The translations under genes and the position numbers were made by a program. The notes beneath the pieces were generated by a model, which did no database searches, was not told where the DNA came from, and was given only the letters and a program-made list of their open reading frames with translations. Of a stretch of DNA of 64,000 nt, positions 2,365 to 63,047 are shown piece by piece. This DNA comes from Escherichia coli (GTDB taxonomy: Bacteria > Pseudomonadota > Gammaproteobacteria > Enterobacterales > Enterobacteriaceae), in NCBI RefSeq assembly GCF_003991155.1, contig NZ_CP031293.1, one strand, 5' to 3'. The first letter of the stretch is position 1; the number at the start of each line of letters is the position of its first letter.

Positions 2365-3867
2365 ATGACGATTTTTGATAATTATGAAGTGTGGTTTGTA
2401 ATTGGCAGCCAGCATCTGTATGGCCCGGAAACCCTGCGTCAGGTGACGCAACATGCGGAACACGTTGTTAATGCACTGAATACAGAAGCGAAGTTGCCCT
2501 GCAAACTGGTGCTGAAACCGCTGGGCACCACGCCGGATGAAATCACCGCTATTTGCCGCGACGCGAATTACGACGATCGTTGCGCTGGTCTGGTGGTGTG
2601 GCTGCACACCTTCTCCCCGGCCAAAATGTGGATCAACGGCCTGACCATGCTCAACAAACCGTTGCTGCAATTCCACACCCAGTTCAACGCGGCGCTGCCG
2701 TGGGACAGCATCGACATGGACTTTATGAACCTGAACCAGACCGCGCATGGCGGTCGCGAGTTCGGCTTCATCGGCGCGCGTATGCGTCAGCAACATGCCG
2801 TCGTTACCGGTCACTGGCAGGATAAACAAGCCCATGAGCGTATCGGCTCCTGGATGCGTCAGGCGGTCTCTAAACAGGATACCCGTCATCTGAAAGTCTG
2901 CCGTTTTGGCGATAACATGCGTGAAGTGGCGGTCACCGATGGCGATAAAGTTGCCGCACAGATCAAGTTCGGTTTCTCCGTCAATACCTGGGCGGTTGGC
3001 GATCTGGTGCAGGTAGTGAACTCCATCAGCGATGGCGATGTTAACGCGCTGGTCGATGAGTACGAAAGCTGCTACACCATGACGCCTGCGACACAAATCC
3101 ACGGCGAAAAACGACAGAACGTGCTGGAAGCGGCGCGTATTGAGCTGGGGATGAAGCGTTTCCTGGAACAAGGTGGCTTCCACGCGTTCACCACCACCTT
3201 TGAAGATTTGCACGGCCTGAAACAGCTTCCTGGTCTGGCCGTACAGCGTCTGATGCAGCAGGGTTACGGCTTTGCGGGCGAAGGCGACTGGAAAACTGCC
3301 GCCCTGCTTCGCATCATGAAGGTGATGTCAACCGGTCTGCAGGGCGGCACCTCCTTTATGGAGGACTACACCTATCACTTCGAGAAAGGCAATGACCTGG
3401 TGCTCGGCTCCCATATGCTGGAAGTCTGCCCGTCGATCGCCGCAGAAGAGAAACCGATCCTCGACGTTCAGCATCTCGGTATTGGCGGTAAAGACGATCC
3501 TGCCCGCCTGATCTTCAACACTCAAACCGGTCCAGCCATTGTCGCCAGCCTGATTGATCTCGGCGATCGTTACCGTCTGCTGGTTAACTGCATCGACACG
3601 GTGAAAACACCGCACTCCCTGCCGAAACTGCCGGTGGCGAATGCGCTGTGGAAAGCGCAACCGGATCTGCCAACTGCTTCCGAAGCGTGGATCCTCGCTG
3701 GTGGCGCGCACCATACCGTTTTCAGCCATGCGCTGAACCTCAACGATATGCGCCAGTTCGCCGAGATGCACGACATTGAAATCACGGTGATTGATAACGA
3801 CACCCGCCTGCCAGCGTTTAAAGACGCGCTGCGCTGGAACGAAGTGTATTACGGGTTTCGTCGCTAA
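2365..3867 (+). CDS. araA: L-arabinose isomerase
   Basis: 500-aa ORF beginning [24 protein letters not shown]; 10 bp after araB. Confidence 0.97.
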
Positions 3868-3869
3868 GT

Positions 3870-3975
3870 AGCCGCATCAGGTGTGTAACGCCTGATGCGA
3901 CGCTGACGCGTCTTATCAGGCCTACACGCTGTGATTTTGTAGGCCGGATAAGCAAAGCGCATCCGGCATTGTTTT
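3870..3975. repeat. REP/BIME palindromic units between araA and araD
   Basis: GCCTGATGCGACGCTGACGCGTCTTATCAGGCCTAC followed by the inverted copy GTAGGCCGGATAAGC...GCATCCGGCA. Confidence 0.85.
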
Positions 3976-4035
3976 CCCCCTCGCCCCTCTGGGGAGAGGG
4001 CCGGGGTGAGGGGAAACGACCTCTCAGGAGTCAAC

Positions 4036-4731
4036 ATGTTAGAAGATCTCAAACGCCAGGTATTAGAAGCCAATTTGGCGCTGCCAAAACATAACCTGGT
4101 CACGCTCACATGGGGCAACGTCAGCGCCGTTGATCGCGAGCGCGGCGTCTTGGTGATCAAACCTTCCGGCGTCGATTACAACGTCATGACCGCTGACGAT
4201 ATGGTCGTGGTCAGCATCGAAACCGGTGAAGTGGTTGAAGGAACGAAAAAGCCCTCCTCCGACACGCCAACTCACCGGCTGCTCTATCAGGCATTCCCGT
4301 CCATTGGCGGCATTGTGCACACACACTCGCGCCACGCCACCATCTGGGCGCAGGCGGGTCAGTCGATTCCAGCAACCGGTACCACCCACGCCGACTATTT
4401 CTACGGCACCATTCCCTGCACCCGCAAAATGACCGACGCAGAAATCAACGGTGAATATGAGTGGGAAACCGGTAACGTCATCGTAGAAACCTTCGAAAAA
4501 CAGGGTATCGATGCGGCGCAAATGCCCGGCGTCCTGGTCCATTCTCACGGCCCATTTGCATGGGGCAAAAATGCCGAAGATGCAGTGCATAACGCCATCG
4601 TGCTGGAAGAGGTCGCTTATATGGGGATATTCTGCCGTCAGTTAGCGCCGCAGTTACCGGATATGCAGCAAACGCTGCTGGATAAACACTATCTGCGTAA
4701 GCATGGTGCGAAGGCATATTACGGGCAGTAA
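4036..4731 (+). CDS. araD: L-ribulose-5-phosphate 4-epimerase
   Basis: ORF-track frame 4006-4731; start placed at the internal Met of [32 protein letters not shown], giving 231 aa; class II aldolase/adducin family. Confidence 0.93.
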
Positions 4732-10238: not shown

Positions 10239-10898
10239 ATGGGGATGGAAAACTACAATCCACCGCAGGAACCCTGGTTGGTTATCCTGTATCAGGATGA
10301 CCATATTATGGTGGTCAACAAGCCGAGCGGTTTGTTGTCTGTGCCGGGTCGTCTGGAAGAGCACAAAGACAGCGTGATGACGCGCATTCAGCGTGATTAT
10401 CCGCAGGCAGAATCGGTGCATCGTCTGGATATGGCTACCAGCGGCGTGATTGTAGTGGCGCTGACCAAAGCCGCGGAGCGGGAGTTAAAACGCCAGTTCC
10501 GCGAGCGCGAGCCGAAAAAGCAGTATGTGGCCCGCGTCTGGGGGCATCCATCCCCTGCGGAAGGTCTGGTAGATCTGCCGCTGATTTGCGACTGGCCAAA
10601 CCGCCCGAAACAGAAAGTCTGTTACGAAACAGGTAAACCTGCGCAGACGGAATATGAAGTGGTGGAGTATGCGGCGGATAACACGGCAAGAGTGGTGTTA
10701 AAACCGATTACCGGGCGTTCGCATCAGTTGCGTGTGCATATGCTGGCGCTGGGTCATCCGATTCTCGGCGATCGTTTTTATGCATCACCAGAAGCGAGAG
10801 CAATGGCACCGCGTTTGTTGCTACATGCAGAGATGTTGACGATTACCCATCCGGCATATGGCAATAGTATGACGTTTAAAGCACCAGCGGATTTTTAA
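10239..10898 (+). CDS. rluA: Pseudouridine synthase RluA (23S U746 / tRNA U32)
   Basis: 219-aa ORF with the HRLD catalytic motif; immediately downstream of rapA. Confidence 0.95.
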   Translation: MGMENYNPPQEPWLVILYQDDHIMVVNKPSGLLSVPGRLEEHKDSVMTRIQRDYPQAESVHRLDMATSGVIVVALTKAAERELKRQFREREPKKQYVARVWGHPSPAEGLVDLPLICDWPNRPKQKVCYETGKPAQTEYEVVEYAADNTARVVLKPITGRSHQLRVHMLALGHPILGDRFYASPEARAMAPRLLLHAEMLTITHPAYGNSMTFKAPADF

Positions 10899-10921: not shown

Positions 10922-12196
<1,275 letters not shown>

Positions 12197-12225
12197 CAAC
12201 AGCGCCTGACGGCGCTGTGTCTGGC

Positions 12226-12288
<63 letters not shown>

Positions 12289-32593: not shown

Positions 32594-32692
32594 GTGCGCT
32601 GCCTGATGCGACGCTGACGCGTCTTATCAGACCTACGGGAGCACGAATGTAGGCCGGATAAAGCGTTTACGCCGCATCCGGCAGTCATGCGC
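32594..32692. repeat. REP/BIME between caiA and caiB
   Basis: GCCTGATGCGACGCTGACGCGTCTTATCAGACCTAC ... GTAGGCCGGATAAAGCG...CGCATCCGGCA. Confidence 0.85.
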
Positions 32693-37057: not shown

Positions 37058-37145
37058 TCGGATGCGGCATAAACGCCTTATCCGACCTGGCTGGAGAGCA
37101 ACCGTAGGCCGGATAAGATGCGCCAGCATCGCATCCGGCGACCAG
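37058..37145. repeat. REP/BIME between caiE and caiF
   Basis: GATGCGGCATAAACGCCTTATCCGACC ... GTAGGCCGGATAAGATGCGCCAGCATCGCATCCGGCG inverted REP pair. Confidence 0.8.
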
Positions 37146-42225: not shown

Positions 42226-42264
42226 GAGAATATTCACTCACTTTATTTGCATATTAATTCACAA
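42226..42264 (-). promoter_or_regulatory. carAB P2 promoter with tandem ArgR (ARG) boxes
   Basis: Minus strand reads TGTGAATTAATATGCAAATAAAGTGAGTGAATATTCTCTGGAGGG immediately upstream of the carA TTG; two TnTGAAT-N8-ATTCAnA-like boxes. Confidence 0.8.
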
Positions 42265-42587
42265 TGATGACGTAAATCAATGCAAATCTGCTTACCGACG
42301 AATTTCTGGCAAACGGCGGCATTCTGGAGATATGGGCGCTAAAAGTCAACTTAATGGCGGGATTTTTTATATTATTTTGTGGCTCATGCATGTTTTACAG
42401 GCATTAAGCGACAAAAAGATCATATAACATGTTCTGGAAAACGCTTGCGCAGCAAGAAGATTGCATGAAATCAAAATGAGCAGAAAAAAGTGGACCAAAT
42501 GGTCAAAATTTACATTAAAACAACAAAAACAGAATGCAAAACATGTAATTTTCGGCATTTGCATTAAATTTAAAAGCATAACACTAA

Positions 42588-60961: not shown

Positions 60962-61469
60962 ATAATATGCTCTCCATTCATTGTTTTTATGGTTCCATAG
61001 AAATCAATACATCAGATAATTCATTTTGATTAAGAACGACTCAGAAAGTATATTTAAAGGTGAATGGCAAAGCGTGATGGAGATCGCAGATTACTTTTAC
61101 CCCCGGGTGTGGAGGTATCGTGTTTCAAAAAATGTGTCGATTTTAAATATCACTCATTGATTTATAAACATTTTTCCTCACAAAAAGAAAATTCAATTCT
61201 GTACAAGAATATTTTGTATCTTCTATTACTTTCTCCAGTAATAACTCACCATTCAGGCATAACTTAAACCTCTTGTTCATAATCTCAACTTTTGTAAATG
61301 AAAACGCACATAAGAGTTAAAATAAACAATGTACTAAAGATTGATTACGCAAAAATGCGAGGCGTCTTCAGGATTAGAATCGATAAAACAGAATGGGTTA
61401 AAGAGAGCGATATAATAGCGGCGGGTGCTTGAGGCTGTCTGTCTCAGGCATTAGCTGAACGGCAGATAG

Positions 61470-61540
61470 AGAAAAGCCCCGAGTGATATTTTACCATCAA
61501 CCCGAGGCCCCCTATATGCAGAACACATGTAGAGTGCCTC
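61470..61540 (-). ncRNA. sokC: Putative SokC antisense RNA (approximate)
   Basis: Placed by analogy with hok/sok loci, where Sok is antisense to the mok translation-initiation region; boundaries not determined from the sequence. Confidence 0.3.
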
Positions 61541-61725
61541 TTACTGACCGTAAGGTCAAGGAGAAGAGAGCAATGAAGCAGCATAAGGCGATGATTGTCG
61601 CCCTGATCGTCATCTGTATCACCGCCGTAGTGGCGGCGCTGGTAACGAGAAAAGACCTCTGTGAGGTTCACATCCGAACTGGCCAGACGGAGGTTGCTGT
61701 TTTCACGGCTTACGAATCCGAGTAA
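61516..61725 (+). CDS. mokC: MokC, regulatory ORF overlapping hokC
   Basis: ORF-track frame 61483-61725; Met at MQNTCRVPLTDRKVKEKRA, running into the Hok frame. Confidence 0.7.
   Translation: MQNTCRVPLTDRKVKEKRAMKQHKAMIVALIVICITAVVAALVTRKDLCEVHIRTGQTEVAVFTAYESE
61573..61725 (+). CDS. hokC: HokC small membrane toxin (type I toxin-antitoxin)
   Basis: MKQHKAMIVALIVICITAVVAALVTRKDLCEVHIRTGQTEVAVFTAYESE, 50 aa; Hok/Gef family. Confidence 0.88.
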   Translation: MKQHKAMIVALIVICITAVVAALVTRKDLCEVHIRTGQTEVAVFTAYESE

Positions 61726-62959: not shown

Positions 62960-63047
62960 CTTTTTTAAATTGCCCCTAGATGAATGCACGGGCGGAGAGG
63001 AAATTCCCCTTCGCCCGTGTCAGTATAATTACCCGTTTATAGGGCGA

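Follow-up and report, generated by a model that had tools for sequence, protein, structure and literature searches.

An empty IS621 target in the REP between araA and araD of Escherichia coli matches the occupied rluA-djlA site and is used in other genomes

The DNA analyzed here, referred to as the window, is a stretch of 64,000 nucleotides from Escherichia coli that carries araB (654-2354), araA (2365-3867), araD (from about 4037), polB, rapA, rluA (10239-10898), a copy of the insertion sequence IS621, and djlA on the minus strand. Inside the arabinose operon, in the spacer that runs from the araA stop codon (3867) to the beginning of araD (about 4037), lies a Y-type REP hairpin (3890-3921, plus strand) with arms at 3890-3903 and 3908-3921. 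It is followed by CTAC and then by its BIME partner, an inverted Z-type REP (3936-3970, minus strand), which pairs with the hairpin as an inverted copy at 3938-3952. An extragenic imperfect palindrome of about 35 nt, then CTAC, with an inverted Z-type REP beside it, is the arrangement shared with the Y-type REP/BIME elements of E. coli. Just 5' of the araD start, a GC-rich imperfect palindrome (3974-4016, no strand assigned) reads TTCCCCCTCGCCCC ... GGGGTGAGGGGAAA; it is missing from the K-12-like spacer allele, and we take it to resemble the boxC repeat family of E. coli. The spacer is polymorphic, as evidenced by comparison of the window (3867-4036) with two other genomes (L002, 2595-4157, and L010): the window allele has one BIME unit and the GC-rich palindrome, whereas other strains have two or three tandem BIME units of 85 bp and no palindrome. 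Among 5,426 complete E. coli genomes, the window's spacer allele is covered to at least 80% in about 2,853.

About 7 kb away, downstream of rluA, IS621 occupies 11004-12282 on the plus strand. The CT core stands at both of its edges, at 11002-11003 and again at 12281-12282, and if the core is counted once the element is 1279 bp long. The element is 100% identical to copies annotated as "IS110-like element IS621 family transposase," and its intact open reading frame (11196-12176, plus strand) predicts a recombinase of 326 amino acids. By its length, its recombinase, its CT flanks, and a left-end bridge RNA with target- and donor-binding loops, it is an IS621. The insertion abuts the 3' end of a REP-pair element downstream of rluA (10923-11003, plus strand), the last 9 nt of which, ATCAGGCCT at 10995-11003, make up the left target and core; the right flank of the occupied target, ACACG, resumes at 12283-12287 (plus strand) across the junction. 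A full-length Rfam match to naRNA4 covers 10923-11002 and stops one base short of the IS621 junction. naRNA4 is a REP-derived nucleoid-associated RNA. Elsewhere in the window, Rfam matches above the gathering score are a sok antitoxin RNA of a hok/sok-type locus (61423-61575), the ES003 sRNA (42262-42314), and tpke11 (62960-63037).

The original prediction was that the araA-araD REP, which reads ...gacgcGTCTTATCAGGCCTACACGctgtg..., shares 21 nt with the site that IS621 occupies at rluA-djlA. The match is exact: GCGTCTTATCAGGCCTACACG stands at 3908-3928 on the plus strand, is the sole exact copy in the 64-kb window, and has an expected number of 0 in shuffled sequences. It even extends to 22 nt (3907-3928, plus strand), which equal 10987-11003 joined to 12283-12287, the rebuilt pre-insertion site. 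For the 21-mer the correct join is 10988-11003 with 12283-12287, one base away from the start first given (10989). The rebuilt empty site is not hypothetical, because 300 nt of it match NZ_CP033635.1 at 300 of 300 positions, and it is covered to at least 80% in 3,178 of the 5,426 genomes. Within the shared stretch, the 11-nt IS621 target ATCAGGCCTAC lies at 3915-3925 on the plus strand, with the left target at 3915-3921, the CT core at 3922-3923 (target positions 8 and 9), and the right target at 3924-3925; it overlaps the 3' arm of the hairpin and the CTAC that follows. In this genome it is empty.

Positions 3907-3928 are the 3' arm of an ordinary Y-type REP plus the flanking CTAC, and there is nothing unusual about them. 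As many as 18 of the 21 nt of GCGTCTTATCAGGCCTACACG equal the Y-REP consensus, and one REP query of Durrant et al. ends in GCGTCTTATCAGGCCTACG (PMC11208160). The 21-mer also occurs in at least 13 entries of the natural target list of Durrant et al. 2024 (PMC11208160). We had expected the exact 21-mer to be common everywhere and dropped that idea, since only 5 stretches turned up when species-representative genomes were scanned, among them unrelated REPs in Citrobacter, Pseudocitrobacter, and other Escherichia. The exact 21-mer is thus uncommon, although its 18-nt REP part is still consensus. To judge by the sequences, the identity is above random chance, yet it is family resemblance among REPs.

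What IS621 would read in such a site is set by its bridge RNA. The bridge RNA region of the window copy (11018-11195, plus strand, 178 nt) folds more stably than shuffled sequences (z = -3.9). At gathering thresholds, Rfam found no bridge-RNA family match in the left end of the element and only naRNA4 on the adjacent REP, so we placed the guides by comparing the left end with the bridge RNA as published and with canonical copies. The left target guide (LTG) is AUCGGGCCU (DNA ATCGGGCCT) at 11067-11075, and the extended right target guide (RTG) is UGCGUAG (TGCGTAG) at 11092-11098. Both guides are identical to those of canonical IS621; the five changes in the left end relative to the canonical element, which include element positions 74, 79, 81, and 99, all lie outside them.

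Work by Durrant et al. provides the rule against which the site can be read. The IS621 loop encodes ATCGGGCCTAC; the natural target reads ATCAGGCCTAC instead, so that position 4 forms an rG:dT pair, and a 3-nt extension, GCA, that pairs with the UGC 5' of the RTG marks the most favored sites (PMC11208160). Against the window's guides, the araA-araD 11-mer matches at 10 of 11 positions and has the rG:dT wobble at position 4, as expected of an IS621 target. The optional match to the extended RTG is lacking, since the flank is ACG rather than GCA (1 of 3 positions), and the same holds at rluA-djlA. Because the window copy has canonical guides, the two sites match equally well; the araA-araD site and the rebuilt rluA-djlA site receive identical scores. 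The "perfect match" first claimed is therefore perfect between the two sites but not against the guide, given the wobble and the 1 of 3 extension positions. Likewise, of the 21-nt identity proposed as a targeting match, the bridge RNA reads only 11 nt, or up to 14, and the rest is REP consensus.

Other REP sequences in the window had been put forward as mismatched decoys with diverged cores, at 32594-32692 and 37058-37145. Both do contain sequence changes, but these are not core changes. In the Y-REP between caiA and caiB, 32626-32636 on the plus strand reads ATCAGACCTAC, in which the CT core is intact and the change is a G to A at left-target position 6; the sequence TTATCCGACCTGG does occur, near 37078-37090. 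Missing from the list were three minus-strand Z-type arms of sequence ATCCGGCCTAC, with C at target position 4, at 3939-3949 (within the BIME partner of the araA-araD REP), 32649-32659, and 37104-37114.

To survey natural occupancy, we queried the 5,426 complete E. coli genomes with chimeric junctions, in each of which a unique 150-nt flank running up to the core CT was joined to 150 nt from the left end of IS621. A genome was counted as occupied if one place covered at least 80% of the junction query, which requires that the IS abut that particular flank. IS621 itself is present in 2,244 of the 5,426 genomes. Altogether it occupies 13,172 places, and the genomes that have it carry a median of 5 and at most 28. 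Only 17 of the 13,172 places are on plasmids, and the window's exact IS621 variant (at least 99% identity) is a minority, with 41 records.

The survey, which the original prediction had proposed, found IS621 at the araA-araD REP (ATCAGGCCTAC, 3915-3925, plus strand) in 27 genomes. The rluA-djlA REP that is occupied in the window (ATCAGGCCTAC) is occupied in 171, and the caiA-caiB Y-REP, empty here, in 53. None of the 5,426 genomes gave a junction with IS621 at any of the three ATCCGGCCTAC arms. These genome counts are not counts of independent insertion events, because most occupied genomes probably inherited their insertion. At caiA-caiB, the one junction read from the 53 genomes (L003) has the perfect left flank ATCAGGCCT, which, like the lack of insertions at the Z-type arms, supports the guide-based reading. 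In view of that junction, the window's caiA-caiB "decoy" is a single-base variant of a site that IS621 does use in other genomes.

The most direct evidence for use of the araA-araD site comes from strain MEW (NZ_CM192120.1), which has the same spacer allele as the window and carries IS621 between the equivalents of 3923 and 3924. The left junction reads ...GACGCGTCTTATCAGGCCT/TGTATTATCC..., that is, ...ATCAGGCCT/TGTATT..., and the right junction reads ...ACAGTATCT/ACACGCTGTGATTTTGTAGG..., that is, ...ACAGTATCT/ACACGCTGTG..., so that CT stands on both sides of the element, as expected of insertion at the dinucleotide. On each side of the insertion, 45 nt of flank are identical to the window, and in the left-end bridge-RNA region the MEW element and the window copy differ by one base. 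The araA-araD REP is, then, a genuine and currently empty IS621 target, used in MEW at the same CT of the same allele. The rluA-djlA spacer of MEW consists of other DNA and lacks the REP target. It contains a transposase fragment and a gene annotated as UDP pyrophosphate phosphatase (L011, 7028-8443), without the REP pair; this is a different insertion or island at that locus. Target immunity was considered as a cause of the empty araA-araD site and rejected for want of support; MEW, with no REP target at rluA-djlA, is uninformative about double occupancy.

In the 26 further genomes with IS621 between araA and araD, the element lies in a paralogous REP of an expanded allele, and in at least 25 of them the junction match spans 384 nt rather than 300. 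Two were read (L002 and L010). Both have two to three tandem 85-bp BIME units, with IS621 in the second REP (REP2), flanked by ATCAGGCCT on the left and ACGCG on the right. REP1 reads ATCTGGCCTAC, with T at position 4, and is empty, as is REP3, which is present in one of the two genomes and reads ATCAGGCCTACACG. The flank of REP2, GCG, matches the extended RTG at 2 of 3 positions, and that of REP3, ACG, at 1 of 3. The IS621 copies at REP2 in L002 and L010 are identical over 1279 bp, while araA differs at 23 of 1,503 positions and the number of BIME units differs too, a pattern that suggests either that IS621 inserted here more than once or that the region was transferred by recombination. MEW and REP2 together represent at least two insertion events between araA and araD; further events may have occurred, or recombination may have moved the region.

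A further comparison is available within a genome that has the window's flanks, E. coli 2016C-3878 (NZ_CP029747.1), in which IS621 is found at about 8 places. A second copy in this strain, 3' of ybiT (1293127-1294405), sits in ATCAGGCCTACGCA, a full 14-nt match that includes the extended RTG; its junction, ...CCTACGCA, matches at 3 of 3 extension positions. Its sequence and that of the window copy disagree at 26 positions, all of them outside the first 200 and the last 110 or so nucleotides. The full match at ybiT and the use of REP2 over REP3 are consistent with a preference for the extended RTG, as published, although so few cases cannot establish it.

We propose that the araA-araD REP could receive IS621 just as the equivalent rluA-djlA site 7 kb away has done, and that it is empty through the rarity of transposition; we put the probability of this reading at about 0.9. 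Under the rule of Durrant et al., the 11-nt ATCAGGCCTAC within 3907-3928 would be recognized by the IS621 bridge RNA, the GUAG of the RTG would pair with the top-strand CTAC, and recombination would take place at the CT core. Transposition would be rare relative to the number of equivalent sites in the genome. When wild-type IS621 was introduced into BL21(DE3), 173 genomic insertion sites were recovered, of which 129 were ATCAGGCCTAC, and 96.2% of insertions were in matching sites (PMC11208160). With about 8 places in this strain and at least 129 usable ATCAGGCCTAC sites in BL21(DE3), emptiness is the default. For the same reason, the "natural within-window test" of guide-RNA targeting that had been envisaged is no test, as one empty site tests nothing. 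The IS621 copies in this strain are probably active, and the emptiness of the site most likely reflects sampling rather than protection.

A first alternative is that the site matches the guide but is disfavored, either by selection, if an insertion here is polar and cuts araD off from the araBAD promoter, or by local context such as transcription or the state of the hairpin. Cells deficient in araD are arabinose sensitive. The position of the target inside the operon, from the araA stop at 3867 to araD at about 4037, is in keeping with such a cost, as are the lower occupancy (27 versus 171 genomes) and the occupation of the window's own allele in just 1 of the approximately 2,850 genomes carrying it. 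Nevertheless, 27 complete genomes tolerate IS621 between araA and araD, the tolerant backgrounds include araA genes that differ by 1.5% alongside identical IS copies, and genome counts are confounded by phylogeny. Because occupancy at araA-araD is lower than at rluA-djlA, some site-specific disadvantage is possible, but we consider it unlikely to be the explanation for the empty site. A broader version, which we hold only tentatively and would sooner doubt than accept, is that the several-fold differences in natural occupancy among equally matching sites (171, 53, and 27), together with the presence of IS621 in REP2 but not in REP1 or REP3 of the tandem BIMEs read, reflect a real site-level landscape, shaped by extended pairing, REP/BIME context, and selection on operon polarity, beyond phylogenetic sampling.

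A second alternative, which we regard as very improbable, is that the site was formerly occupied and lost its IS621 by precise, scarless excision, making the window a revertant. Recombination of the IS110 type is conservative, and Durrant et al. demonstrated programmable excision (PMC11208160); the perfectly intact target in the window would fit such a history. There is, however, no positive evidence for it, an intact target is equally expected if the site was never used, and most genomes with the window allele are empty. The idea that the 21-nt identity is mere REP-family resemblance in a site unusable by IS621 can draw on the 18 of 21 consensus nucleotides and on the presence of the 21-mer at unrelated REPs in other genomes, but it is refuted by the MEW insertion at the exact position, and the REP consensus and the IS621 target are one sequence by the design of the element.

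The targeting of REPs by IS621 and its guide rule are already known, and the finding reported here is real but ordinary. REP targeting was described by Choi, Ohta, and Ohtsubo (2003, J Bacteriol 185:4891, as cited in PMC1525189), and Durrant et al. 2024 set out the guide rule along with its tolerance of mismatches and the use of sites across the genome (PMC11208160). The araA-araD site agrees with these known targets in its 11-nt motif within a REP, its CT core, and its orientation. Because Durrant et al. mapped 173 sites, the insertion-site test suggested at the outset had already been published. In their supplement, the window's occupied rluA-djlA site and its bridge RNA variant are included (seq783 and target_seq831), while the araA-araD site was not found among the entries listed of the natural target lists (PMC11208160). 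Other elements, IS1397 and ISKpn1 of the IS3 family, also insert specifically into enterobacterial REPs (PMC1525189). They share REP targeting with IS621 but belong to a different transposase family. Their recognition is probably protein based rather than guide-RNA based, and they probably insert at a different point in the palindrome.

To this knowledge, the present analysis makes a small addition, namely, natural use of the araA-araD site as documented in complete genomes (MEW and 26 others). The outcome of the survey agrees with the published bridge-RNA rule, offers little beyond confirmation, and raises no new mechanistic question. The junction query, moreover, is a simple way to survey IS621 site occupancy in public genomes. 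For IS621 in E. coli, a target predicted from sequence alone proves to be used in nature with single-nucleotide precision, while near-miss REP arms go unused.
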